From Escherichia phage SKA49: a stretch of DNA of 51,548 bases. Position numbers and translations under genes: made by a program. The notes beneath the pieces were generated by a model. That model was not told the DNA's origin. It ran no database searches and was given only the letters and a program-made list of their open reading frames with translations. This document shows, in pieces, positions 5,412-27,955 of this stretch (position 1 is the first letter of the stretch; each line of letters starts with the position of its first letter). The stretch lies in sequence record NC_079180.1; one strand, given 5' to 3'.

Positions 5412-5675
5412 ATGGCTACTAAAACCGGAATGATGATTGTCCCAAGCCGTAATAACTCTTTAAGCGGCTTCACTCCGTATAAAATCTATGAAGTAATTTC
5501 TGGCACTGGTGAAGCAAACCTGTCAGAAGTTGCTTTGAAGTTGGGCCGTATGGTCCACTCCGAAATCTCCTGTAACGTAGTTGATGATGAAGGTAAAATC
5601 CGTTTTGTAACAATGGATTTCTTTCGTGAATTTAACCTCAAATCTGAGATAGGTGTTTTATATCATGAAATTTAA
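5412..5675 (+). CDS. hypothetical protein (87 aa)
   Basis: ATG with GGGAG RBS; in frame with track ORF 5400..5675. Confidence 0.55.
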   Translation: MATKTGMMIVPSRNNSLSGFTPYKIYEVISGTGEANLSEVALKLGRMVHSEISCNVVDDEGKIRFVTMDFFREFNLKSEIGVLYHEI

Positions 5676-5892
5676 ATGTGTTGCTTCAACCAAAGATTAT
5701 GTTCCAGTTGGCTTCATCGTTGAAGGTGAAGCTATCTCGCCTTTGGAATTTAAAGTGGCCAAATCGGCTGAGAATGTTTCTCCAGCATTTCGTAAAGGTG
5801 CTGTAGTGCCTATGAATGGTGCATTCTGGACATGGCAGCGTGACCATGAAGCAGAATTTGCAGACATTTGTGAACAAGGCAGTCTTCAATAA
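5665..5892 (+). CDS. hypothetical protein (75 aa)
   Basis: ATG 5665 with AGGTG RBS; in frame with track ORF 5653..5892. Confidence 0.5.
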   Translation: MKFKCVASTKDYVPVGFIVEGEAISPLEFKVAKSAENVSPAFRKGAVVPMNGAFWTWQRDHEAEFADICEQGSLQ

Positions 5893-5898
5893 TTTCCT

Positions 5899-5925
5899 CA
5901 ACCACTTTTGTAATGAGAGTGGTTG
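5899..5925 (+). terminator. hairpin CAACCACT-(11 nt)-AGTGGTTG after gene 5665..5892
   Basis: Perfect 8-bp stem immediately after stop codon; no strong T-run. Confidence 0.3.
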
Positions 5926-5955
5926 CTGAATATTATTAATCAACTTGGAGCATTT

Positions 5956-6246
5956 ATGAAACAGCGCACCCGTTTACAACGCGACCCAGCCACAGGTCGC
6001 TTGTTGCCAGCATATTTGAAAGTTGGTGACTTAGTTTACACTCGTGACTTTGCTTTTGACATTTGCCCAAGCAAAGCATATGAAGTTCTTGCCACCAGCT
6101 TGTCTGGTCCTAAAGTAATATTTGGTGCACTTGAGCCAATCCAGTTAACCGGAACTCAGTTTGTCATTAAAGATGAATCTGGTTGCAATCGTATCTTCAA
6201 TCTTGAAGGTGGTTTATCCAAATGGGAGAAGGTGAAGCGTGGGTAA
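5956..6246 (+). CDS. hypothetical protein (96 aa)
   Basis: ATG with GGAG RBS; in frame with track ORF 5923..6246. Confidence 0.5.
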   Translation: MKQRTRLQRDPATGRLLPAYLKVGDLVYTRDFAFDICPSKAYEVLATSLSGPKVIFGALEPIQLTGTQFVIKDESGCNRIFNLEGGLSKWEKVKRG

Positions 6247-8572: not shown

Positions 8573-8802
8573 CGTCATCCGAATTTACCATTGATGGAGT
8601 ACCATACTTACTTGAATCCAGTTGCGAATATCGTCACTGGTCAGTAATTCGTGACCGAGTAGTTAAATTCTTGGAGCGAGTAGGGAAAGATGCGGCTATT
8701 CTGACTACAGCCACAGTAGAAGGAACAACCGAAATCAATCGGGAGCTTGTATCTTTTAAATTAACCATCAACCCAACAGGAAATCCATTCCGTGAAAGTT
8801 GA
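8569..8802 (+). CDS. hypothetical protein (77 aa)
   Basis: AAGGAAG RBS; ATG overlaps upstream stop. Confidence 0.5.
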   Translation: MTSSEFTIDGVPYLLESSCEYRHWSVIRDRVVKFLERVGKDAAILTTATVEGTTEINRELVSFKLTINPTGNPFRES

Positions 8803-9058
8803 AGAATTAGCTGACCGACTAACGGCAGCAAAGAAAGAGCTTGCAACGCACACCATTCGTGTTAATTCTCTTAAGGCACTCCCTTCTGGTGAGGAAATCT
8901 CACTATTCACAGACAATATTTGGTTTACCATGAATCGTGCGCAGTTTGTTGAGATTCAGGACCAACGTTTGGCTGAACTGGAGCAGAGAGTCAGAAATTA
9001 CGAAGGTTTGTTGCAAACTTTACAAGCAACTCTGGACCAGGAGTTGGGAAATGTCTAA
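8792..9058 (+). CDS. hypothetical coiled-coil protein (88 aa, GTG start)
   Basis: Track ORF; weak RBS. Confidence 0.4.
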   Translation: MKVEELADRLTAAKKELATHTIRVNSLKALPSGEEISLFTDNIWFTMNRAQFVEIQDQRLAELEQRVRNYEGLLQTLQATLDQELGNV

Positions 9059-9467
9059 TGTTAAGTTGGGCCAACGCTCACTTGACCGACTCAAAGGTGT
9101 AAATCCCTCATTAGTGGCAGTTTTCAAGCGTGCATGTGAAACAATGCCGTTTGATGTAACTGTTCTTGAAGGATTGCGCACTTATGAGCGGCAACAAGAG
9201 CTTTTAAAGCAGGGTGCAACCAAAGTTTCAGTTAGCCGACACATGTCAGGCAATGCTTTAGATATTGCACCGTATCCAATTGACTGGAATGACCTCGAAC
9301 GATTCAAAGTTTTAGCTCATCATATGTTCAAAGCTGCAAAAGAGCTTGGAATTACCATTCGTTGGGGTGGGAACTGGGGCCGTATTGATGAAAATCAACC
9401 GTATCCACCACTCGCACCAGGTAAGAAGAAGCTGATTGATATGCCGCACTTCGAACTTCCAGCATAA
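9051..9467 (+). CDS. peptidase M15-family peptidoglycan hydrolase (L-alanyl-D-glutamate peptidase-like)
   Basis: LEGLRTYERQQELLKQGATKVSVSRHMSGNALDIAPYPIDWNDLERF resembles the His/Asp zinc-site block of T5-type endolysins; GGAG RBS; in frame with track ORF 8937..9467. Confidence 0.65.
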   Translation: MSNVKLGQRSLDRLKGVNPSLVAVFKRACETMPFDVTVLEGLRTYERQQELLKQGATKVSVSRHMSGNALDIAPYPIDWNDLERFKVLAHHMFKAAKELGITIRWGGNWGRIDENQPYPPLAPGKKKLIDMPHFELPA

Positions 9468-9487
9468 CTTCATCAATGGAGCATCCG

Positions 9488-15499: not shown

Positions 15500-15730
15500 A
15501 TGAAAACTGCTGAAATTGCCGAAGAGATTTATAAGGCCGTAATAGCCAACCAAATCACAAGTGAAGTCCTGCACATGGATATTGAAGAAGTTCGCAATGC
15601 CTTTGGTGGTTTTGCAATCTTGTCAATAGAAGCTGCGGAAGCACTGACAAACACGTACAATCAACGCGAATATGAAAAGCGTTCTGTACTAAATGCGTCG
15701 ATGAAAGAAATTCAGGCGTCATTAAAATAA
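15500..15730 (+). CDS. hypothetical protein (76 aa)
   Basis: GGAGAG RBS; track ORF. Confidence 0.55.
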   Translation: MKTAEIAEEIYKAVIANQITSEVLHMDIEEVRNAFGGFAILSIEAAEALTNTYNQREYEKRSVLNASMKEIQASLK

Positions 15731-15786
15731 TACCATTATCATGGTGCGGAGCTAATTAATCTCCCACCATATGAACCGGAGAGCAA

Positions 15787-16437
15787 ATGATTACTGCAAC
15801 ACTCGTTGACCACATGGGCAGCGACCTCACCACTGTTAATGCTGCACGAGTTTCTTATGGTGCAGAGTCGCATGAAATATCTTTACGTGACGAGAAGCTG
15901 ATTGAGTTTCTTGCAAAGCATAAGCACATTACGCCGTTTCGCCACGCACAGGTAACATTGCGTTGCAAAGCTCCAATCTTCATTGCACGTCAGCTTGGCA
16001 AACATCAAACTGGCTTTAGTTGGAATGAGGTTAGCCGTCGTTACAAAGATGGCGAAGCAATCTCTATTGAATGCTTTGTACCAGGTGTTGTATTTGGTCG
16101 TCCTGAAAAGTTGATGACTCAGACTGCACAACCGTTGCCACAAGATTTTGCTGACGATATTCATTATCGCATGGAAAGCCATAACAAGGCTTGCATCGCA
16201 GAGTATGAAACGTTAATTGGTTTGGGGATTGCCCCAGAGCAAGCTCGCATGGTTCTCCCACAATCCATGATGACTGAATGGATTTGGACTGGCTCACTTT
16301 ATGGCTGGGCATCTATGTATAATCAACGTTCCTCCGAACATGCGCAATATGAAGTTCGCTTGTTTGCGGAAGAAGTGAATAAAATCATGTCAGAACTGTT
16401 CCCAATTTGTTGGAAGGCTCTGACCAACCAGGAATAA
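15787..16437 (+). CDS. thyX: ThyX-like flavin-dependent thymidylate synthase (divergent)
   Basis: ARQLGKHQTGFSWNEVSRRY resembles the ThyX RHRx7S signature, with KHQ in place of RHR; N-terminal AARVSYG block. Confidence 0.55.
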   Translation: MITATLVDHMGSDLTTVNAARVSYGAESHEISLRDEKLIEFLAKHKHITPFRHAQVTLRCKAPIFIARQLGKHQTGFSWNEVSRRYKDGEAISIECFVPGVVFGRPEKLMTQTAQPLPQDFADDIHYRMESHNKACIAEYETLIGLGIAPEQARMVLPQSMMTEWIWTGSLYGWASMYNQRSSEHAQYEVRLFAEEVNKIMSELFPICWKALTNQE

Positions 16438-16441
16438 ATAA

Positions 16442-18205
16442 ATGAACGTCAAGCAATGTGTGGCTAAGATTAAGCACGATGTACCAGACTGTAAATCCAC
16501 ATCTGGCAAGTCTTTACAGGTTTGGTTGAATGTCGATGAAGCTGGTAATAAGAACTTCTCTGGTTACTGCTTTGCGTGTGGCGTTCTAGTACCAAATCCT
16601 TATGGCAATAATCCGGAGAACATTCCAGAGATTAAAGTCAAAACTCCAGAAGAAATTCAGGAAGAAGTTGATGAAATCACTGCTTGTCCTCCGTTTGATT
16701 TAACCCATCGCAGCATCGAGCCAGAATTCTGGAAAGCTGCTGGTGTCCGACTTCTGTATTCAGAGTATGATGGAAAGACTCCAAATGCTCTGGCACATGG
16801 CTACACCAAAAATGGTAAACTTGTTCGTTGGAAGATTAAACTTCTGAACAAGAAAGTTATGTGGTCAGTTGGCGACACTCAGGGTAACGACCCTTACAAC
16901 TGGATGGCTGCAAAAGCAATTGGCGGTAAGACACTGTTCATCACAGAAGGTGAAGAAGACTGCATCGCATTGCGTCAAATCCTCAAAACTATGAACCGTG
17001 GTGGTGCATATGAAGATTTGGATTTTGCTGTAATTAGTTTGAGTGACGGAAGTGATTCCGTACACAAATGCTTGTCGCCAGTTGCAGAAGAAATTAAGCA
17101 ACGTTGGGAGCAGGTTGTTATCGTATTTGATGATGATGAACCTGGACGTAAAGCTGCAAAAGAAGCGTGTCGATTGTTGCCTGGTGCAATGATTGCAACA
17201 CTTCCAGCTAACGATGCCAACGATTGTTTGAAGCGTGGCTTGCTCAAAGCTACTCAATCTGCTGTTGTGTTCCGTGCTGCTCGTCCTCTGCCTACAGCAC
17301 TTGTCAACAAAGAACTTCTTATGGAAGAGCTTGATGACGAGGTTGAACAGGGTGTGGACTATCCTTGGCCCAAGCTAACTGACTTAATGTTTGGTCAACG
17401 TCGAGCCGAAGTTATTACAATCGGTGGTGCAGAAGGTGGTGGTAAAACTACCTTGTCCCGTCAGATTGTGCATCACAACATTACCAAGCACGATTGGGGA
17501 GTGTTTACTGCATACATGGAGGAAACTCCTACAGAAACATTGCGCCGAATGGCTGGCCTTAATGACAACTTGCCATATTGGGAACCTGCGTTTACTCGTG
17601 AAGACCCTCGATATGATGAAGCTAAGTTCCGTCAAACTGCTGCGAAGATGCTTCGTAACATGGAGATTTGGGACCGCAAGCAAGCTGGAGAAGACCCTTA
17701 TGAAACCTGGGATGGGTTAAAGACGATTCTTCGTCAGATTGGACCAGACATTGATATGTTTGTCCTTGATAACTTAACCTACTTATCGGAAGGGATTTCT
17801 GCGTCAGAGAAGAACGACTTTCTGGGCAAGCTGTATGCAGACATTACAAAGTTAGCAGACCAGTACCAGTTCCACGTGAATATTCTGTCGCACCTTAACC
17901 CTGTGGCAAAAGGTCAACGACCTCATGAGGATGGTGGACGTATTAAGAAGTCAGACTTTACTGGCTCACGTGCTGCTGCTAAATATTCTCATGGTATGTT
18001 CGGCTTTGAGCGTAATAGCCAGGCAGTTGACCCAAACTGTTCTATTATTCGTTCCATCAAAGCTCGTAAGAGTGGTAAAACAGAAGGCTTCAAGACGTAT
18101 TATGACACCGAATCTGGTCGAATTATTCAACGTTCTTGGGATGACTCTCTGTTCGAAACTAAAGAGATTGTTCAACTTACTAAGAAGAACGGTCCACACC
18201 AATAA
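16442..18205 (+). CDS. DNA primase/helicase (zinc-finger, TOPRIM and DnaB-like helicase domains)
   Basis: Zn-binding SGYCFACGV; TOPRIM LFITEGEEDCIAL and VFDDDEPGRKAA; Walker A GGAEGGGKTT; Walker B-like MFVLDNLT. Confidence 0.85.
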   Translation: MNVKQCVAKIKHDVPDCKSTSGKSLQVWLNVDEAGNKNFSGYCFACGVLVPNPYGNNPENIPEIKVKTPEEIQEEVDEITACPPFDLTHRSIEPEFWKAAGVRLLYSEYDGKTPNALAHGYTKNGKLVRWKIKLLNKKVMWSVGDTQGNDPYNWMAAKAIGGKTLFITEGEEDCIALRQILKTMNRGGAYEDLDFAVISLSDGSDSVHKCLSPVAEEIKQRWEQVVIVFDDDEPGRKAAKEACRLLPGAMIATLPANDANDCLKRGLLKATQSAVVFRAARPLPTALVNKELLMEELDDEVEQGVDYPWPKLTDLMFGQRRAEVITIGGAEGGGKTTLSRQIVHHNITKHDWGVFTAYMEETPTETLRRMAGLNDNLPYWEPAFTREDPRYDEAKFRQTAAKMLRNMEIWDRKQAGEDPYETWDGLKTILRQIGPDIDMFVLDNLTYLSEGISASEKNDFLGKLYADITKLADQYQFHVNILSHLNPVAKGQRPHEDGGRIKKSDFTGSRAAAKYSHGMFGFERNSQAVDPNCSIIRSIKARKSGKTEGFKTYYDTESGRIIQRSWDDSLFETKEIVQLTKKNGPHQ

Positions 18206-18244: not shown

Positions 18245-18270
18245 CCTCACCAATCCATTGGAGCCATACT

Positions 18271-20205
18271 GTGTTGTATCCTTGGGAAAATATGTATGCC
18301 AGTGACATTGAAACAACTGGCCTGTTGGAGCAAATGCGCAAGCAAGCTGCACCACGTCTTCACAACATCGGATATATTGATGTTCTGACTCGTGAAGAAA
18401 CTGTAATAGAATGGACCGACAGAAAATCTATCCAGGCATTTCTGGATACAGGCCCAACACTAATCATGCACAACGGCGCAACCTTTGACTTTGAAGCACT
18501 GAGGTTCCTTGGTTACGACGTTTCAAAATGTACACTAGTTGATACCTTGTTTATCAGTTGGTATCTGCAACCTCGTCGTGTTAAGCACGGTTTAGAAGGT
18601 TACGGCGAAGAGTTTGGTGTGCCAAAACCAGTCATTGAGGATTGGGAAAATCAAACTCAAGAAGAGTACAACCATCGTGTGATGGAAGACTGCAAGATTC
18701 AGTTGAAGCTGTGGGAACAGCAATACATTCAACTCTTGAAGATTTATAAATCTCCTAGCGAAGTTAAGCGCTTCGTTGAATATCTGATGACAAAAGCTCG
18801 TCAACAAGTTATTCAACAACGTACTCGCTGGAAGTTAAACATTGAGAAGGCATTGGCATTTAAGGCCAAGCTGGAACCAATGATTAAAGAGAAGACGGAC
18901 GCATTGGAAGCATCAATGCCACGTATTCCAGAATATGTTATCAAAACCCGTCCAGCTAAATGCCACAAGTTGAACGGACAACTGTCTGCCGCTGGTATTA
19001 AGTGGAAGGCTATATGTGATGCGAACGGTTTGGATTGGAAAGACCCAGAGATAGGTATCAGAATCTTAAAGGGCTATAAAGAACCGAACGCTGGTTCTCA
19101 CGTACAGATTAAGGATTGGTTGTTCAGCTTAGGTTGGGAACCAGAAACATTTAAGTTTGACCGCAATAAGGAAACAGGTGAAACCCGCCAGATTCCTCAA
19201 ATCACTGTGAAGGATGAAGATGGCAATCCTGAAATATGTCCAAGCCTGCATAAGTTGGCGGAAAGAAACCCCGAATCTGGTATTCAACATCTTATTGGGA
19301 TGGGCGTGTATAAACACCGTCTCTCTGTTGTTAATGGTTTCCTTCGCGACGTCGATGAAGACGGATACCTTACTGCACGATGTGGTGGCCTTACCAATAC
19401 TTTACGTCTTAAACACCGCGAACTTGTTAACCTCCCTTCTATTCGTGTATTTGGCGGTGAAGAACTGCGTTCAATGTTGGAAGCGTGGCGCGAAGACTAC
19501 GAACAGTTAGGCTCTGACTTGTGCTCACTGGAAGACCGTTGTAAACACCACTTCCAATGGATGTATGACCCTGAATACGTTAAGAAGCAGTTGGCACCAG
19601 ACTATGATGCTCACCTTGCAATTGGCGTAATTGGTGGATTTATTACAGAACAGGAATCTCAGGACCACAAGGACGGAATTAAGAAGTGTAAACAACGTCC
19701 AATGTTTAAGACCACAAACTATGCTTGTCAGTATGGTGCTGGTGTGCCAACTGTAGCTCGTTCTGCTGGCTGTGACCAGACTACTGCTGCACGACTGCAT
19801 AAAGCATATTGGGACTTGAACTGGTCTATTAAAGAGATTGCTGCAAACACCAAAGTTATCACAGTTGATGGTCAGATGTGGCAACAGAATCCAGTAAACA
19901 AATTCTGGTATTCATTGCGTACAGAGAAAGACCGCTTCTCCACATTGTGTCAGGGTACTGGTGCATATGTGTTTGATGTTTGGTGTAACAACATCATTGC
20001 AATTTGTAATGAACGTTGGGGATGTGACCCACTTCTGTCTGGACAATTCCACGATGAATTGATTCTCCAGGTTAAGAAAGGTTTCCGTGATTTGTGGACG
20101 GACTTGCTTAATGAAGCAATGGACCGAACCAACAAAGAACTTAAACTCAATCGTGATTGTGCATGTGATGTACAATTTGGCGACAACTACGCGGAGATTC
20201 ACTAA
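18271..20205 (+). CDS. family A DNA polymerase with 3'-5' exonuclease motifs
   Basis: Exo I DIETTGL, Exo II HNGATFDFEAL, motif B KQRPMFKTTNYACQYG, motif C FHDE; GTG start with GGAG RBS (alternative ATG 18292). Confidence 0.85.
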   Translation: MLYPWENMYASDIETTGLLEQMRKQAAPRLHNIGYIDVLTREETVIEWTDRKSIQAFLDTGPTLIMHNGATFDFEALRFLGYDVSKCTLVDTLFISWYLQPRRVKHGLEGYGEEFGVPKPVIEDWENQTQEEYNHRVMEDCKIQLKLWEQQYIQLLKIYKSPSEVKRFVEYLMTKARQQVIQQRTRWKLNIEKALAFKAKLEPMIKEKTDALEASMPRIPEYVIKTRPAKCHKLNGQLSAAGIKWKAICDANGLDWKDPEIGIRILKGYKEPNAGSHVQIKDWLFSLGWEPETFKFDRNKETGETRQIPQITVKDEDGNPEICPSLHKLAERNPESGIQHLIGMGVYKHRLSVVNGFLRDVDEDGYLTARCGGLTNTLRLKHRELVNLPSIRVFGGEELRSMLEAWREDYEQLGSDLCSLEDRCKHHFQWMYDPEYVKKQLAPDYDAHLAIGVIGGFITEQESQDHKDGIKKCKQRPMFKTTNYACQYGAGVPTVARSAGCDQTTAARLHKAYWDLNWSIKEIAANTKVITVDGQMWQQNPVNKFWYSLRTEKDRFSTLCQGTGAYVFDVWCNNIIAICNERWGCDPLLSGQFHDELILQVKKGFRDLWTDLLNEAMDRTNKELKLNRDCACDVQFGDNYAEIH

Positions 20206-20450
20206 TGGTTGTTGTATCTATATTCGACAAAGTGGACCATTTACACTTTGTCAATAAAGGCGAAGACGCACGGGAAGCTGTGCTGTCTGTAATTACCGAG
20301 AATGCTGAAACATTATTTGGAAGTGATTCTGCTACCAATTCAGTGTATCAGGCATTCATTAAAACTTTATCTGGTCCTGTCGTCAATGAGCAAGAGTTAA
20401 TCTCTTGTATGAACGACCTGGACTTCTCCCTAGTTATCACTCAACTGTAA
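20205..20450 (+). CDS. hypothetical protein (81 aa)
   Basis: ATG overlaps polymerase stop; track ORF. Confidence 0.5.
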   Translation: MVVVSIFDKVDHLHFVNKGEDAREAVLSVITENAETLFGSDSATNSVYQAFIKTLSGPVVNEQELISCMNDLDFSLVITQL

Positions 20451-20466: not shown

Positions 20467-21333
20467 ATGGCATTTGCTGCTCCTACACTGGCCTCGAACA
20501 AGACTCCTTCTGCTGCACCATTACTGGAAGCGGGTGGTTATCCTGCTCGTGTTTGCCGTATTATCGACCTGGGCTTACAGCCTGGTTCTGCTAAATATCC
20601 TACCCCGTCTCTGAAACTTCTGGTGACTTTCGAACTGCTCGACGAGTACATGAAAGAAGTTGACAGTGAAGGTAAAATGGTCATGGTTCAAGACCCAGAC
20701 GAAGATGACGGCATCATGATGGCGAAGAATCTTGAAGACAAGCCGCGTTGGTTTGACTTTGAGTTTACCTATAATGCTGACGGCTTCATGGGAGAGAACT
20801 CCCACATCTACAAATTCGCTAAGGCGATTGATGCACTGGAAGTTAAACCTAATCTGGAACAAGGCATTCAGGGCCATCCTGCCAAGAACCTGCCGGATTG
20901 GTTGGGCGAACCTCTGATTGTTGGCATTGTTCAGTATACCAAGCAGTCAGGTAAGAATGCGGGTCAGGTTGCGAACAAAGTTGCTACCTTCTCTCCGATG
21001 AAATCCAAAGAGAAGAAAGAAGCCAAAGCTCTGGTTAACCCGACTGTCTTCTTCGACATGTCCGAGCCGGACCTGGAAGTATTCAACAAACTGCCAGGTG
21101 GCGAATCTCCGTATGCAATCAAGAACCGTATCACTTCCGGTGTTGATTTCTACAAGACTAAGCTGTCTGCACTGTTAGGTGGCAAACCTGCTGATGATGG
21201 TGCTGTACCGAATCAGGCTTCTGATGAAGAAGTTGATGCAGCTATGAAAGCTGAACTAGAAGCACAAGCTGCTGCGAAAGCACAGCGTGAAGCTGAAGGT
21301 GGTGCTGCTGGCGGCACAGGTATGCCCTTCTGA
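20467..21333 (+). CDS. abundant replication-module protein of unknown function (288 aa); candidate ssDNA-binding or annealing protein
   Basis: Host-optimal codons; C-terminus ends Gly/Ala-rich then MPF; followed by strong terminator. Confidence 0.55.
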   Translation: MAFAAPTLASNKTPSAAPLLEAGGYPARVCRIIDLGLQPGSAKYPTPSLKLLVTFELLDEYMKEVDSEGKMVMVQDPDEDDGIMMAKNLEDKPRWFDFEFTYNADGFMGENSHIYKFAKAIDALEVKPNLEQGIQGHPAKNLPDWLGEPLIVGIVQYTKQSGKNAGQVANKVATFSPMKSKEKKEAKALVNPTVFFDMSEPDLEVFNKLPGGESPYAIKNRITSGVDFYKTKLSALLGGKPADDGAVPNQASDEEVDAAMKAELEAQAAAKAQREAEGGAAGGTGMPF

Positions 21334-21347
21334 TTGTTGAACAATAT

Positions 21348-21372
21348 GGCTCCTTCGGGAGCCTTTAATTTT
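21348..21372 (+). terminator. rho-independent terminator
   Basis: GGCTCC-TTCG-GGAGCC hairpin followed by TTTAATTTT. Confidence 0.7.
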
Positions 21373-21381
21373 GGAGTTTAA

Positions 21382-21810
21382 ATGAAGTGTTGTCGCATTT
21401 GTGGTGAATCCAAACCTCTTACTGACTTTGGTTGCACCAAGAAGAGTAAGGATGGTCGTGATACTATGTGCAAATCTTGCAAGAATGTGAGAAGCAGACA
21501 GCATTACAATCTAAACTCTAGTAGGATAAAAGAGCATCAACGAACTTACCTGGCAAGCAATAAAGAAACCAAGTATGCGTCGTCTGCTGCATATCGTAAT
21601 GGCTTCCCAAACAAAATTCGTGCACACCGTATGGTGAATGATGCGCTGCGAAGAGGGAAGATTTCAAAACAACCTTGTGAGTGCTGCGGAAACTTATCAG
21701 CGATTGCTCACCACGATGATTACCTCAAGCCAATGGTTGTACGTTGGCTGTGCAGAAAGCACCACGCTGAATGGCACAGAGATAATGGAGAAGCACTAAA
21801 TGGCAAGTAA
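21382..21810 (+). CDS. HNH endonuclease
   Basis: N-terminal CxxC...CxxC and CECCGNLSAIAHHDDYLKPMVVRWLCRKHHAEWH. Confidence 0.65.
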   Translation: MKCCRICGESKPLTDFGCTKKSKDGRDTMCKSCKNVRSRQHYNLNSSRIKEHQRTYLASNKETKYASSAAYRNGFPNKIRAHRMVNDALRRGKISKQPCECCGNLSAIAHHDDYLKPMVVRWLCRKHHAEWHRDNGEALNGK

Positions 21811-22825
21811 GAAGAAAATCCTTTTGCTGGTCGATTTTGATATGGTGGCATTTAGTCATTGTGCGGCAGAAGAATTTGGGAAAGAGCCAGAAGATATAAA
21901 TTTCTCAAAGATTCAAATGTCAATGGACTCTAAGATGGAGTTCTTGTCGAAGCGTTCTGGCGCAACTCATGTTATGGGTTTCGTATCTCCTTCTAAGACA
22001 ATGCGAAACGTGTTTGCCGAAAATTATAAAGGCAATCGAGATAACGTGTGGCGTCCAGAAAACTTAAAGAATGCCAAGGCCCACTTGCTTGTTGCATGGA
22101 ATGGGTATTGGATGAAAGGTCTGGAAGCAGATGACCTTCTCGCTGTATTCGCACGTCATGAATACGAAATGACAATGGGTAAACGTAATGAGATTAAGAG
22201 CCTCACTCGTATTGGTCCGTGCACATATGACGAAGTCTGGATTGCATCGTTGGACAAAGACTTGCGCCAAATCGGGCAGAATGGTGGTGTTGGTCCAGTA
22301 ATCAAACATTACCAATGGGAACGAGAAACCCAGGGTATTGGTGAGAAGGTTGTAACTCCTCAGGATTACGGCGAACTCAAACTAATCATCAAGGACAATG
22401 GCAAGTCGAAGAAGAAAGAAGTCAAAGGCAATGGCCCTAAATTCTTCTTGCATCAATTGCTTATTGGCGACTCAACGGATAACGTTATGGGTTGCGGAGT
22501 TCTTGAAGAAAGAATTTACAAAACTGGTGCCAAAGCCGGAGAAACTTATTTCCGTCGTGATGGCATTGGTGCAGTTGCTTCATTCGAAATGCTGGATGGT
22601 ACAACATCCTATGCAGAAGGTTTGAAGAAAGTTATTGGTGCATACATTATGCGCTTCGGAGATGGTTGGGAACAAGAGCTGCTCAAAGTGGGCCGTCTTG
22701 TTTACATGCACCATCAAATTGAAAAGGGTAATTGTGTTCGCTTGTGGCATTACAAGAACATTAACGAATACTTTGACCTTAAAGAGAATCGTATCCTCAC
22801 TCAAGAAGAGTATCTCCAGAAATAA
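21800..22825 (+). CDS. 5'-3' exonuclease / flap endonuclease
   Basis: ILLLVDFDMVAFS, GLEADDLLAVFA and LIGDSTDNVMGCG resemble Pol I 5'-exonuclease motifs. Confidence 0.8.
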   Translation: MASKKKILLLVDFDMVAFSHCAAEEFGKEPEDINFSKIQMSMDSKMEFLSKRSGATHVMGFVSPSKTMRNVFAENYKGNRDNVWRPENLKNAKAHLLVAWNGYWMKGLEADDLLAVFARHEYEMTMGKRNEIKSLTRIGPCTYDEVWIASLDKDLRQIGQNGGVGPVIKHYQWERETQGIGEKVVTPQDYGELKLIIKDNGKSKKKEVKGNGPKFFLHQLLIGDSTDNVMGCGVLEERIYKTGAKAGETYFRRDGIGAVASFEMLDGTTSYAEGLKKVIGAYIMRFGDGWEQELLKVGRLVYMHHQIEKGNCVRLWHYKNINEYFDLKENRILTQEEYLQK

Positions 22826-22836
22826 TTGGAGTTGGA

Positions 22837-23361
22837 ATGGCTTACGGTTATTGTGGAACGGAAGCCAAGTTTGTATCTTGGCTCCAATCTGCTATTCGAA
22901 GTGTTTGGTCTAAACACCCAAGCAAACTCGCGCTGATACAATCTCGACGCATTGCATTGAAGGTCGGCGATTCAAAGAAACCAATCTTCCACATTCAATG
23001 CTACCATTGCAAGAAGTTGTATAAGCTCAAAGAGATTGAAGTAAACCACAAAGTTCAGGTTGGTGGGCTCCTTAAGTTGGAAGACCTACACCGCTTTGTG
23101 GACAACCTTCTACTGGTTCAGCCAGAAGATTTGGAATTGCTGTGTAAAGATTGTCACGGCATTATTACATACATGGAACGATATGGTGTATCCCGACGTG
23201 ATGCAGTCATTGAGAAGAAGTGTATTGCATTTGCCAAATTAACTGACGAAGAGCAAATTGCCAAGTGCAATCTTGCTAAAATAGAGCCAGTTCCTAAAAC
23301 CAAAATCGGACGCAAGAATGCTGTTCGAGAATACCTGAGAAAGAATCTTAATGTCTATTAA
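22837..23361 (+). CDS. HNH-like endonuclease domain protein
   Basis: CYHCKK...EVNHKVQVGG...LCKDCHG arrangement. Confidence 0.55.
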   Translation: MAYGYCGTEAKFVSWLQSAIRSVWSKHPSKLALIQSRRIALKVGDSKKPIFHIQCYHCKKLYKLKEIEVNHKVQVGGLLKLEDLHRFVDNLLLVQPEDLELLCKDCHGIITYMERYGVSRRDAVIEKKCIAFAKLTDEEQIAKCNLAKIEPVPKTKIGRKNAVREYLRKNLNVY

Positions 23362-24106
23362 GCTCCTCGATGACGGTACAAGATACACAAAGGCTCACGC
23401 ACATGATTGGGAAGACCCAGACTGCCGTATCAAAGGGCGCTGTGAACTCTTCATCAAGATTGACGGAATTCGAGCTATCCGTAATAAATCAGGTAGTGTC
23501 TGGAGTCGTAATTCCAAACCCCTACCTCATTTGGACCACTTACAGTTCAGAGATGCTGAGATATTCCGTAATAGTTGGAATGAGACTTCTAGCATCCTCG
23601 GACGTATTGACCCGCCAAGCATCCCACTAACCCAGGACAATGTGTATGAGTTGAGTGATGGTGCTGTTGACCCACGCCTGTACATCGGCTGGTGCAAAGA
23701 CCCAAGCAATGAAAACCTTAAGGCATTGATGGATAAATATCTGGCGCTTGGTCATGAAGGTATCATTGTCCGTGATGCAAGAGGTAAATGGTGGAAGATT
23801 GTACCATATAAATACGCCGATGTGAAGATTACTGGTATGAAAGAAGGTACTGGTGCTCTTAAAGGTATGTGTGGTTCTATCTCCTCGAACTACGGCAGTG
23901 CTGGTTCAATGGTGAAAGATTGTCTGGCAGACCACGGCATTCCAGAATCTAACACATTGATTCGTAAGTGGTTGTGGGAACATCGCCACGAACTAATTGG
24001 TTCGATTATGCAAGTTCGATATCGTGAGAAGACAGAAGCTGGTAAGTTCCGGTTCCCGTCACTCGTCCGTTTACGTGCAGACAAAAGTGAGGAAAGTTTT
24101 GATTAA
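23351..24106 (+). CDS. ATP-dependent DNA ligase (compact)
   Basis: Motif I FIKIDGIRA (KxDG); LGHEGIIVRDARGKWWKIVPYKYADVKI resembles motifs IV-V. Confidence 0.75.
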   Translation: MSIKLLDDGTRYTKAHAHDWEDPDCRIKGRCELFIKIDGIRAIRNKSGSVWSRNSKPLPHLDHLQFRDAEIFRNSWNETSSILGRIDPPSIPLTQDNVYELSDGAVDPRLYIGWCKDPSNENLKALMDKYLALGHEGIIVRDARGKWWKIVPYKYADVKITGMKEGTGALKGMCGSISSNYGSAGSMVKDCLADHGIPESNTLIRKWLWEHRHELIGSIMQVRYREKTEAGKFRFPSLVRLRADKSEESFD

Positions 24107-24727: not shown

Positions 24728-25327
24728 ATGTCTTGTATGACCCAAGTTGTTGCAGTTAAACGAGTGCATCCTAATGCGAAATTACCTGTGTACGCTACTG
24801 CTGGCGCTGCTGCTGCTGACGTTTGCACTATCTCCGATAGCACTGTTGTTATCAATCCCGGCTGCTCTGCTGTTTTCGATACAGGCCTCCAATTCGAGAT
24901 TCCAGTTGGATACGAACTCAAAGTACATAGCCGTTCTGGTCATGGCTTTAAGTCTGGTATTCGCTTGGCAAACTGCACAGGAATTCTGGACTCCGATTAT
25001 CGTGGTAATCTTATGGTTAAGCTGCACAATGACTCGGACACAGCCTTTGTGGTTCAACCAGGTGAACGTATTTGTCAGGTGCAAGTTAGTAAAGCTACTC
25101 AACACCATTTCGTTGAAGTTGACAGCTTGAATGAAACTGCTCGTGGTGTAGGTGGCTTTGGTTCTACTGGACGTGTAGAAGTTGGTCAGTACGACCCAAG
25201 TCTTATCGTTCCATCAAACGGCTCACACTCGCACAGCATGTCTGTTGTTGGCGAAGGCACAACGGCCTTTGTTTCAGGAACAACTTCAATTGGTACCCAC
25301 ACTCGCGGGGCCGAACGTTACAAATAA
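24728..25327 (+). CDS. dut: dUTP pyrophosphatase
   Basis: dUTPase motifs RSGHG, GILDSDYRG, GERICQ, RGVGGFGSTG. Confidence 0.9.
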   Translation: MSCMTQVVAVKRVHPNAKLPVYATAGAAAADVCTISDSTVVINPGCSAVFDTGLQFEIPVGYELKVHSRSGHGFKSGIRLANCTGILDSDYRGNLMVKLHNDSDTAFVVQPGERICQVQVSKATQHHFVEVDSLNETARGVGGFGSTGRVEVGQYDPSLIVPSNGSHSHSMSVVGEGTTAFVSGTTSIGTHTRGAERYK

Positions 25328-25345
25328 ATCTGGAACCTATCTGAA

Positions 25346-25936: not shown

Positions 25937-27955
25937 ATGTCAAAGACTGATGACCTCGGACCGGAGTTTAATGATACAGTAGCCTCGTATCTTGCCAAGC
26001 ACTACGGTGACGTATTAAAAGTCTCAAGAGAAAGATTCTGTATTCTATCTTTGCCATTGCTCCGTCGATATATTTCAGAAAATACTGCAATAGTTGACAG
26101 CTATGAAGAACAAATTCAAGCAGAGTTAGAAGGCCAGGGTCTTGAAAACGATGCTGTATTGCGTTCCGTTTTCAGAGCACAACTTGAGCGTCTTCGCTCT
26201 GGCGACAAGAAAGACTCGACTGCCTATGCAGATGAGTTGAAGAAAGGTATTCAAGCAGGTGTTACTGACCGTGTTGCAGGTTCCACATTAGAGGAGCCAA
26301 ACTCGGAGCATGATAACACCGATGAACTTGTAGACAAGATTCTGCATGACCCACACAATGTGGACCCAACTGTAATCCCTGCCAAGGTTGCAGAACGTGT
26401 TCGCAAAATCTTGATGAAAAGTTTCGAAGCCTTTGGTAAATGGCAGTTCCATATTCAGATGGGATTTCCATTTCAAGCACAAGACTTTCACGATGTAATA
26501 TTCAGTGTTGGTCAGAAGGTTGTTGATGGTGAAATTGACCGCTTAATAGTGACAATTCCTCCACGACACTCTAAGACTCAGCTTATGAGTATTGCATTGC
26601 CCTTGTATTCATTTTGCCACAATGAATCAAGCCATAACATTATCACCTCGTATGCAGAAGACGTTGTTCTTGAATCGAGTGGTTACATTCGTGCTGTAAT
26701 GATGGACCCACTGTTCCAACGCATATTCCCGAAGGTGAGAATCGACCCTAACAAACGTTCTCTTGAACGCTGGGGTACAACCAAAGCTGGAGTTATGCAC
26801 GCAGTACCTACTGGTGGTAAGCTAACTGGTAAAGGTGCTGGACTTCTTGTTGCAAAATACTCCGGTTGTTTCGTGGTGGATGACGTTATCAAGCCGAAAG
26901 ATGCCTACTCTGACACAGTTCGAGCAGAAATCAACGACCGATTTGATAACACCTTTATGTCACGTCTTGCCAACGATGGTTGCATAACTGATTCGTACGG
27001 AAACCAAATTAAGTGTGCCCGTACACCAATGGTTATCATCATGCAGCGAGTCCATGACCAGGATTTAGTTGGTTATATACTCCGTGGTGGCTCTTCTGAT
27101 AAATATCATTACCTCAATATCCCAGCGATTATTGAGAAAGGTGTCGGAAGTGCTGAATGGTATGATAAGTTAATCAAGAAGCAGAACTACACTCATGCTA
27201 TACCCATTCTGTATAATTTGAACAGGAAGGAAGAGAAGTCTGCATTATGGCCTTCACGTAAGAGTTTAGAATCTCTGGAGGCAATGAAAGAGTCTAACCC
27301 ATACACATACAATTCACAGTATGCTGGCGACCCATCTGCACAAGGCCATGGCCTTATCAAAGAAGATTGGTGGCAAGAGTATGAGCCAGACGTTTTCGAC
27401 AGAAGTCGCATAGTCAGAAGTTTTATTACAGCGGATACGGCATCAACTGCCAAATCCTATTCTGATTATTCGGTCCTTAAGCATTGGGGCGTGACTAAAG
27501 AGCGTGACGTTTATTGTTTAGATATTATGCTCGGTAAGTTTGAAACTCCAGAACTCAAGACTGCTATCATCGACTTCTGGAACAAATGCAACAAGTTGGA
27601 CTTGAAATGCGTAGGTTGTATTCCTCGTGCATTGTACATGGAAGACAAGTCTGCCGGACAATTCTTGAACCAACAATTTATCAGAGATGGGAGTGTCCGA
27701 GTTTTACCATTGCCTCGTGATGGCATTAATGGTAATGACAAGGTAACTCGATTCCTTAACGCAATCCCATATTTCTCGCAAAAGAGAATATTCTTCCCTG
27801 CTGGTCATGAACACATCGACCACGTTAGACGTGAAATACTTGGATTCACTTCTTTGGGTAGTGGTACTGGACACGACGATTGTGTCGATAACGTTTCAGA
27901 TATGGTTGCAATCGAATTCTCAGGCCCAAGTGCCAACTACTCCGCATGGATGTAA
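25937..27955 (+). CDS. terminase large subunit
   Basis: Walker A-like PRHSKT, Walker B VVDD, nuclease Asp blocks ITADTAS and GHDDCVDN. Confidence 0.85.
   Translation: MSKTDDLGPEFNDTVASYLAKHYGDVLKVSRERFCILSLPLLRRYISENTAIVDSYEEQIQAELEGQGLENDAVLRSVFRAQLERLRSGDKKDSTAYADELKKGIQAGVTDRVAGSTLEEPNSEHDNTDELVDKILHDPHNVDPTVIPAKVAERVRKILMKSFEAFGKWQFHIQMGFPFQAQDFHDVIFSVGQKVVDGEIDRLIVTIPPRHSKTQLMSIALPLYSFCHNESSHNIITSYAEDVVLESSGYIRAVMMDPLFQRIFPKVRIDPNKRSLERWGTTKAGVMHAVPTGGKLTGKGAGLLVAKYSGCFVVDDVIKPKDAYSDTVRAEINDRFDNTFMSRLANDGCITDSYGNQIKCARTPMVIIMQRVHDQDLVGYILRGGSSDKYHYLNIPAIIEKGVGSAEWYDKLIKKQNYTHAIPILYNLNRKEEKSALWPSRKSLESLEAMKESNPYTYNSQYAGDPSAQGHGLIKEDWWQEYEPDVFDRSRIVRSFITADTASTAKSYSDYSVLKHWGVTKERDVYCLDIMLGKFETPELKTAIIDFWNKCNKLDLKCVGCIPRALYMEDKSAGQFLNQQFIRDGSVRVLPLPRDGINGNDKVTRFLNAIPYFSQKRIFFPAGHEHIDHVRREILGFTSLGSGTGHDDCVDNVSDMVAIEFSGPSANYSAWM

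Follow-up and report, generated by a model that had tools for sequence, protein, structure and literature searches.

Background

The free-standing homing endonucleases of the T-even phages are encoded in intergenic slots beside conserved genes, and they cut the neighboring gene in genomes not carrying the endonuclease gene (PMC2988022, PMC2790892). Such genes bring with them the expression signals of the gene downstream, and they spread with co-conversion of the flanking sequence (PMC2988022, PMC2790892). Here we describe two genes encoding HNH-type endonucleases in Escherichia phage SKA49, HNH1 (positions 21382–21810) and HNH2 (22837–23361), which lie on either side of a gene encoding a 5'-3' exonuclease (exo). 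The window, which is the whole stretch analyzed, comprises the 51,548 nucleotides (nt) of one strand of sequence record NC_079180.1. We put at roughly 0.7 the probability that HNH1 is a free-standing homing endonuclease gene and that HNH2 is a fixed core nuclease of replication or recombination paired with exo.

The window phage is a Carltongylesvirus-like member of the Chaseviridae (Cleopatravirinae) and resembles the coliphage phiEcoM-GJ1. Between positions 20400 and 24200 it is 93–95% identical to the phiEcoM-GJ1-like coliphages and approximately 88% identical to the Yersinia phages PYps23T and PYps16N. The Chaseviridae genome map of the International Committee on Taxonomy of Viruses already marks homing endonucleases (PMC12842549), and three HNH genes of phiEcoM-GJ1 (ORF34, ORF36 and ORF47) are absent from phage ST32 (PMC6266442). 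HNH1 shares with these genes its family, its location in the neighborhood of the replication module, and its presence/absence behavior (PMC6266442, PMC12842549). However, it occupies a different site, and phiEcoM-GJ1 does not carry it. These two published accounts (PMC6266442, PMC12842549) mention neither the HNH1 site 5' of exo nor its three alleles, nor the linked mosaic tract within exo.

The resemblance to the T4 systems is similarly incomplete. Like mobA-E (HNH) and segA-G (GIY-YIG), HNH1 is a small open reading frame (ORF) between conserved replication genes that occurs sporadically among close relatives. As in the 'intronless homing' of T4, it embeds the signals of the downstream gene, and its mosaic flanks are compatible with co-conversion and marker exclusion (PMC2988022, PMC2790892). 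Unlike the T4 Mob proteins, HNH1 has the reverse domain order, with an N-terminal zinc ribbon and a C-terminal nuclease core, and it matches neither Pfam HNH nor HNH_3. Its motif is also a variant, in which the second zinc ligand pair is C..H/C-H and the canonical asparagine is not evident. Both HNH1 and HNH2 belong to known kinds of gene, and current understanding is not overturned by either.

Results and Discussion

A preliminary description, made from the sequence of the window alone, reported two HNH-type genes flanking exo. Both are intact ORFs at exactly the positions given above, and their matches to PHROG families are far beyond chance. HNH1 (142 amino acids (aa), + strand) matches PHROG 2340, annotated 'endonuclease', with an expect value (E) of 2.5e-34, and HNH2 (174 aa, + strand) matches PHROG 1985, annotated 'HNH endonuclease' (E 2.6e-59). 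The gene between them (21800–22825, + strand) encodes a FEN-like exonuclease of 341 aa that matches PHROG 107 (E 6.9e-57) and, at a level under the gathering score, Pfam 5_3_exonuc_N (E 5e-6). The same description took the flanking HNH genes as a sign of past or ongoing homing. This is supported for HNH1, which comes and goes among relatives, and does not hold for HNH2, which is fixed. Placement on both sides of a replication gene is itself no argument for homing, given that HNH1 and HNH2 are not related and that HNH1 alone behaves as a mobile gene.

The HNH1 insertion site

The replication module is encoded on the + strand in the order DNA polymerase, small ORF, 288-aa protein, HNH1, exo, HNH2, ligase. 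HNH1 is carried by about eight of the 33 genus-level genomes in GenBank and is missing from about 25, as judged by inspection or coverage. Its absence was established by direct inspection in phiEcoM-GJ1, ST32, flopper, PO103-1, BSBP01, TH26 and 4HA13. Most relatives infecting E. coli align to the window as two pieces with approximately 430–450 bases missing, and in phiEcoM-GJ1 the gene for the 288-aa protein is followed directly by exo. Junction alignments place the insertion or deletion precisely between the ribosome-binding site and the start codon of exo.

The sequence immediately 5' of this point is shared by all genomes, with and without HNH1; in it the hairpin GGCTCCTTCGGGAGCC is followed by a T-rich tail and then by GGAG. 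The hairpin (GGCTCC-TTCG-GGAGCC plus the T-rich tail, 21348–21373, + strand) is a terminator-like match that is identical or nearly so regardless of HNH1, with one stem mismatch in TH26, and its sequence suggests a terminator-like or RNA-processing site. The GGAG at 21373–21376 (+ strand) is the ribosome-binding site of HNH1 in the window and that of exo in HNH1-less genomes, in which a GTG follows after 9 nt. These genomes read from the GGAG into CTTACCAAA-GTG-AGTAAGAAACGAG, the start of exo. The empty junction is identical in phiEcoM-GJ1, BSBP01, TH26 and L014, and there is one junction across all empty sites.

While HNH1-less alleles start exo with GTG, the HNH1 insert brings a new GGAG (21787–21790) and an ATG (at 21800) for exo. 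Both elements (21787–21802, + strand) are located inside the final codons of HNH1 (N-G-E-A-L-N-G-K). The HNH1 and exo ORFs overlap by 11 nt, and the overlap is identical at every HNH1-bearing locus. The insert carries a replacement ribosome-binding site and ATG, and therefore expression of exo is kept.

Three alleles of HNH1 occupy this site and differ considerably, with 43–57% aa identity among them. Allele A is found in the window, TH37 (98% aa identity), PYps23T and PYps16N (95%), and the metagenome contig L027 (94%). Allele B, which is 43% identical to allele A, is found in Mangalitsa, Bp10, PYps3T, PYps4T, PYps16T and L028. A third allele, of Loessnervirus, occurs in the Erwinia phage Papaline and is 45% identical to A and 57% to B. 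More distant Chaseviridae contigs carry homologues with 58–66% aa identity, also at the same site. Sporadic occupancy of one precise site among close relatives, as expected of a homing gene, is therefore what HNH1 displays.

Mosaicism at the 5' end of exo

The insertion point of HNH1 is also the left edge of a mosaic tract (21811–22110, + strand) that occupies the first ~300 nt of exo. The tract exists in at least three deep haplotype classes with 72–76% identity between classes, against 93–98% identity among the E. coli phages in the upstream gene, the remainder of exo, HNH2 and ligase. Between classes the proportion of synonymous differences (pS) is 0.68–0.88, which is saturated, and that of nonsynonymous differences (pN) is 0.13; the corresponding values for the rest of exo are 0.14 and 0.005. 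Divergence between tract classes is at the level seen between genera. Deliberate recoding was considered for pS values above 0.75 and dropped as an over-interpretation, because saturation at two-fold sites takes Nei-Gojobori pS beyond 0.75.

Class A tracts are found with HNH1 allele A in the window, TH37, PYps23T and L027, and an A-like tract is found without HNH1 in TH26. Class B tracts accompany allele B in Mangalitsa, PYps3T, Bp10 and L028; BSBP01 has a B-like tract (88–89% identical to B) and no HNH1. The genomes with class C tracts (phiEcoM-GJ1, ST32, flopper and PO103-1) all lack HNH1, as does L014, whose tract is intermediate (84–86% identical to C and to BSBP01). Strict linkage between HNH1 and tract class is ruled out by TH26 and BSBP01. 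The distant Chaseviridae whose HNH1 homologues are 58–66% identical were also considered as the source of the class A tract and rejected, as their tracts are no closer (70–74% aa identity).

The backbones of the relatives are of two types, E. coli and Yersinia, with 82–83% identity in the rest of exo, and both types include phages with allele A and phages with allele B. Between Mangalitsa and PYps3T the synonymous divergence (dS) is 0.12 for HNH1, 0.14 for the exo tract and 0.82 for the rest of exo. These two phages share a block of 93–100% identity, corresponding to approximately 21200–22220 of the window, with flanks at 80–88%. Similarly, the window and TH37 are 97–100% identical over 21350–22100, and their flanks are 83–92% identical. 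PYps23T and PYps3T show the converse, with 98% identity outside the block and 50–75% inside it, where they carry different HNH1 alleles and tracts that are 74% identical. The HNH1-bearing blocks are thus about 0.75–1 kb long, reach 300–410 nt into exo, and have similarities that cut across the backbone phylogeny. The phylogeny of HNH1 and its flank is in this respect discordant with that of the backbone, as expected for horizontal spread.

The comparison of TH26 and PYps23T is especially direct. Their exo genes are 97–98% identical, including the class A tract, and TH26 has an empty-type junction and no HNH1. Apart from the HNH1 ORF, only the first ~23 nt of exo distinguish the two, which marks a very recent gain or loss of HNH1. 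The preliminary description had proposed that presence/absence polymorphism be sought in related phages, and for HNH1 it is found in several forms: empty sites with clean junctions, a single site with three alleles, backbone-discordant blocks and this near-isogenic pair.

It is very unlikely that HNH1 is ancestral at this site in the Cleopatravirinae and that the polymorphism reflects nothing other than repeated loss. Such a history would accommodate same-site homologues that roughly track the backbone (HNH1 is 58–66% identical where HNH2 is 71–80%), as well as the dS of 0.45 between HNH1 of the window and of PYps23T, which is not far under the backbone dS of 0.76–0.91. However, alleles A and B, with 43% aa identity, are found on backbones that are 96–98% identical, and allele B with its block is nearly identical across backbones separated by a dS of 0.8. 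Additionally, random deletions would not remake an identical empty junction with a GTG start.

In some relatives, unrelated cargo occupies the slot that separates the 288-aa gene from exo. A gene for a 182-aa RyR-domain protein is present alone in L025, a 4HA13-like locus (1869–2417), and together with HNH1 in L062 (2933–3481). In a distant relative, L044, the slot contains a gene for a 192-aa protein (1669–2247). Because unrelated genes occupy the slot, HNH1 may alternatively be passive cargo, an accessory nuclease for host-DNA attack, competitor exclusion or counter-defence that resides in a variable slot and is moved by ordinary homologous recombination. The conserved hairpin and exo start could act as recombination anchors, and the occurrence of tract classes without HNH1 and the frequency of HNH1-less class C alleles also favor this alternative. 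We nevertheless consider it unlikely. The distribution of the HNH1 family is of the homing type, with tens of thousands of clusters in scattered taxa, multiple intergenic sites by essential replication genes, and paralogues elsewhere. Divergent alleles return to a single, exact junction, with the 11-nt overlap in every case, and the insert preserves the expression of its neighbor, as do the T4 seg and mob genes (PMC2988022).

For HNH1 as a homing endonuclease gene, we infer the nuclease activity, the target site and the directionality from sequence comparison. HNH1 fills the slot between the ribosome-binding site and start codon of exo, supplying substitutes for both. During co-infection its product would cut or nick HNH1-less genomes, and the target would be the conserved empty junction (GGAGCTTACCAAAGTGAGTAAGAAACGAG) or would lie within the first ~300 nt of exo. 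Repair by recombination with the HNH1-bearing genome would then copy HNH1 together with a variable length of flanking exo. The site would constitute a compact natural homing system, with near-isogenic pairs (TH26 and PYps23T), competing alleles, defined blocks and culturable coliphages.

The HNH1 protein

The designation of both proteins as HNH is based on invariant motifs and on the beta-beta-alpha topology predicted in confident models. HNH1 contains the motif C99xxC102...H110-H111...C124..H127-H128...H132 and an N-terminal CxxC...CxxC zinc ribbon. In an alignment of 52 homologues, C33, C99, C102, H110, H111, C124, H128 and H132 are invariant, and C4, C7, C30, D112, D113, Y114 and H127 are nearly so. 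The predicted model has a predicted local distance difference test score (pLDDT) of 96.7 and beta-beta-alpha topology. Motif and predicted fold together provide the beta-hairpin, helix, histidine and zinc ligands of the HNH/beta-beta-alpha-Me nucleases. The conserved pattern of cysteines and histidines therefore indicates an N-terminal zinc ribbon and a C-terminal zinc-bound His-Me core, and in the model HNH1 is predicted to consist of this ribbon, a helical linker and a C-terminal beta-beta-alpha-Me nuclease core.

Searches with HNH1 returned no Pfam HNH family at E<=10 and no NCBIfam family, and the curated HNH profiles were not matched. PF27269, which is recorded for two HNH1 homologues, was absent among the matches in the copy of Pfam searched. 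Neither single-sequence nor profile searches of the PDB yielded usable relatives of HNH1 or HNH2. The two proteins were also considered as paralogues, which hhalign rules out (probability 1.8%), and tblastn and motif searches by regular expression detected no further HNH-like genes within the window.

HNH1 is a member of a very large, uncharacterized family of free-standing HNH genes. A profile search at E<=1e-10 identified 27,795 clusters at 50% identity, and this family of approximately 28,000 clusters is not covered by the copy of Pfam searched. Outside the Chaseviridae, relatives at 40–49% identity occur in 560 phage records from unrelated taxa, whose hosts include Vibrio, Staphylococcus, Escherichia, Pseudomonas, Bacillus and others. 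HNH1 is under purifying selection, with a ratio of nonsynonymous to synonymous substitution (dN/dS) of 0.06–0.17, and all eight ORFs examined are intact.

The HNH2 gene

The preliminary description took universal conservation at a fixed position as the observation that would speak against homing, and this is what we observe for HNH2, which follows exo in all relatives examined. A tblastn search found one copy per genome across 620 phage records. HNH2 is present at 60% identity or more in 79 records, and the same count (79) was found independently through the exo tract. Loci retrieved through HNH2 cannot show that the gene is universal, and therefore we set them aside for this purpose and relied on those retrieved through HNH1, exo or DNA similarity. 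All Chaseviridae-like loci with sufficient sequence have, in this order, the 288-aa gene, exo and HNH2, usually followed by ligase, and the exo-HNH2 order holds in both subfamilies down to 41% aa identity in HNH2. The gene evolves with the backbone, with a dN/dS of 0.04–0.07.

The association with an exonuclease extends beyond the Chaseviridae. Four other lineages, represented by Pakpunavirus PAK_P4 (where the two are adjacent), Otagovirus M5.1, Justusliebigvirus muut and ICP1, carry homologues of HNH2 (E 1e-15 to 1e-29) zero to three genes 3' of a distantly homologous exonuclease. Judged from these sequences, HNH2 is immobile, a core gene at a fixed position whose pairing with the FEN-like exonuclease is conserved.

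It is highly improbable that HNH1 and HNH2 are both homing endonuclease genes (HEGs) that bracket exo as a mobilizing 'HEG island'. Islands flanked by HEGs are known in other phages (PMC10448857), both proteins have HNH-type motifs, and the ICP1 homologue of HNH2 is at the position of gp179, which is listed among the HNH HEGs (PMC10448857). However, HNH2 is single-copy and fixed in every relative examined, in both Chaseviridae subfamilies as well as the four other lineages, and it evolves with the backbone and does not vary in presence. Together with the 3' two thirds of exo it tracks the backbone phylogeny and does not travel with HNH1.

HNH2 contains the motif C55xxC58...N70-H71...N90...C103xxC106-H107, and its predicted model (pLDDT 91.5) has beta-beta-alpha topology; the CxxC...H...N...CxxC-H arrangement on this fold is that of the HNH superfamily. 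In the model, HNH2 is predicted to have an N-terminal helical region, a zinc-bound HNH core and a C-terminal helical region resembling SAP. No Pfam or NCBIfam family matched above threshold, and PF01844 scored 14.2 bits against a cut-off of 21.4. The top match in a structure search is endonuclease VII, and a match of lower root-mean-square deviation is to the GVE2 HNH protein (2.9 Å over 82 residues). A search with HNH2 found no match to Endonuclease_7 (PF02945) at E<=0.1, and the profile search of the PDB was also empty. In the BFVD database, 11 viral clusters have the full HNH2 fold, none of which has a characterized function.

In phiKMV a syntenic run comprises polymerase, a small ORF, gp21, the exonuclease gp22 and endonuclease VII (gp23), the last in the slot occupied by HNH2 in the window. 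The 288-aa protein is weakly similar to phiKMV gp21. Orthology of HNH2 with the phiKMV endonuclease VII was rejected, as neither BLASTP nor hhalign detects similarity; positional equivalence was retained. Endonuclease VII has a CxxC-N motif. In contrast to T4 endonuclease VII (gp49) and phiKMV gp23, HNH2 has CxxC-H as well as additional N- and C-terminal helical domains. Phage flopper lacks the polymorphic endonuclease genes of the other relatives, and its annotation includes no endonuclease or resolvase besides HNH2.

HNH2 is a conserved phage HNH protein that probably has a replicative or recombinational role. More tentatively, and at somewhat less than even odds, synteny and fold point to a structure-selective endonuclease that takes the slot of endonuclease VII in replication or recombination. 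Such an enzyme would act on replication or recombination intermediates, resolving junctions or debranching, or would join the exonuclease in breaking down DNA. In its role it would be similar to T7 endonuclease I.

A packaging function was also envisaged in the preliminary description, which allowed that one of the two genes may serve packaging or replication. HNH2 fits this suggestion, and synteny favors replication or recombination over packaging. As a packaging-associated HNH protein of the HK97 gp74/GVE2 type, HNH2 would stimulate terminase cutting of concatemers at terminal repeats, which we consider improbable. The gene does not adjoin those encoding terminase or portal. It is separated from the large terminase gene by 2.6 kb and four to five genes, and the distance is greater in the Aeromonas phage PVN05, in which ribonucleotide reductase genes are located between them. 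The invariant neighbor in five lineages is the exonuclease and not terminase, and endonuclease VII is the top structural match. Furthermore, unlike HK97 gp74 and the GVE2 HNH protein (PDB 5h0o), HNH2 is longer by ~80 residues, is distant from terminase and portal genes, and has exo as its conserved neighbor.

Several observations weigh against reading HNH1 as a homing gene and HNH2 as a core nuclease of replication or recombination. TH26 and BSBP01 have class A and class B-like tracts, respectively, and no HNH1, indicating that the link between gene and tract is not absolute. Because tracts of classes A and B are also found in genomes without HNH1, the tract may be an old polymorphism and not always a product of co-conversion. 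The common HNH1-less class C alleles are unexpected if cleavage is efficient. The CxxCH motif of HNH2 and its lower-deviation match to the GVE2 HNH protein resemble packaging-associated HNH proteins, and HNH2 has no sequence similarity to phiKMV gp23 (BLASTP, hhalign) or PF02945. The ICP1 homologue of HNH2 is at the position of gp179, which one paper counts, by its domains, among the Mob-like homing endonucleases (PMC10448857); no HNH_3 match to this homologue was found here. Finally, we found no biochemistry for HNH1, HNH2 or any close homologue of either.

A broader proposal, which we regard as rather speculative, links the two genes. The FEN-like exonuclease and HNH2 would form a two-nuclease module common to five or more unrelated lytic lineages (Chaseviridae, Pakpunavirus, Otagovirus, Justusliebigvirus and ICP1), with HNH2 as an unrecognized family of structure-selective (junction-resolving or debranching) enzymes that replaces endonuclease VII or I in the same slot. 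The saturated 5' haplotypes of exo would be target-immunity alleles held apart by competing HNH1 alleles. Several phage groups with therapeutic uses (Pakpunavirus, Chaseviridae) are missing a junction-resolving or DNA-processing nuclease, and the recurrent pairing of HNH2 with exo offers a lead to it.

Annotation of the two genes

A probable selfish gene, HNH1, can be told apart here from a core gene, HNH2, both of which are at present inconsistently annotated. GenBank labels on HNH1 include 'baseplate wedge protein', 'endonuclease VII', 'putative recombinase' and 'hypothetical'. HNH2 is labeled 'HNH endonuclease', 'endonuclease VII' and even 'dNMP kinase' (deoxynucleoside monophosphate kinase, in PYps3T). 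The records with doubtful labels on HNH1-family or HNH2 genes are PYps23T gp40 and gp44, PYps3T gp50 and Papaline 00030. The deposited names of two Carltongylesvirus-like genomes are Staphylococcus hyicus phage Pel53 and Aeromonas phage phiA050. These host labels look inconsistent with identities to coliphages of 86% and approximately 75%, respectively, the latter over the 300-nt exo tract only.

Other features of the region

All of the remaining genes of the region are on the + strand. The DNA polymerase gene (18271–20205) is an intact 644-aa ORF in the window, and it is followed by an 81-aa ORF (20205–20450) and the gene for the 288-aa protein (20467–21333). The latter protein matches PHROG 862 (E 7.7e-43) and, under the cut-off, the NCBIfam model rep_init_NGO0469 for phage replication initiation proteins of the NGO0469 family (E 2.8e-16). 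Every locus with sufficient sequence has this gene upstream of exo, and the protein is conserved across relatives and probably associated with replication. The ATP-dependent DNA ligase gene (23351–24106) matches PHROG 114 (E 1.3e-39) and Pfam DNA_ligase_OB_2 (E 4e-7), and its start overlaps HNH2 by 11 nt. A dNMP kinase-like gene, a dUTPase gene and two small ORFs are located between ligase and the large terminase gene (25937–27955).

The replication module is a hotspot for endonuclease genes of this sort. PYps23T (L070) carries three more, at 8680–9057, 15554–15997 and 17822–18205, and the matching sites in the window (9367–9473, 16437–16441 and 18250–18289) are cleanly empty. Two of the products (gp23 and gp38) are HNH/AP2-like 'homing endonucleases'. 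The third, gp40, is an HNH1-family paralogue with 33% aa identity, encoded in the intergenic site between primase/helicase and polymerase. Gene calling splits the DNA polymerase gene into two pieces in BSBP01 and in three metagenomic Chaseviridae contigs (L058, L061 and L062). Between the pieces an 'HNH protein' gene is called in BSBP01 (L008, 245–682) and a 145-aa ORF in L062. The split could be an intron- or intein-like insertion or the insertion of a free-standing endonuclease gene. In comparison with the collinear contig L059, L058 has a 63-aa ORF and a 95-aa Pfam HNH_3 gene between HNH2 and ligase (5534–5973), so that a further endonuclease site with presence/absence variation directly adjoins the locus described here.

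The dUTPase ORF (24728–25327) encodes 199 aa in the window, phiEcoM-GJ1 and BSBP01, and approximately 150 aa in PYps23T, Mangalitsa and PYps3T. In the window, approximately 135 extra bases at the 3' end (roughly 25177–25330) encode a tail rich in serine, glycine, threonine and histidine. Elsewhere in the window, the GC content between 39001 and 40000 rises to 0.525, compared with approximately 0.44 in other regions, and the GC skew is positive. From collinearity with PYps23T, this GC-rich stretch is probably within a long tail structural gene of the tape-measure type.

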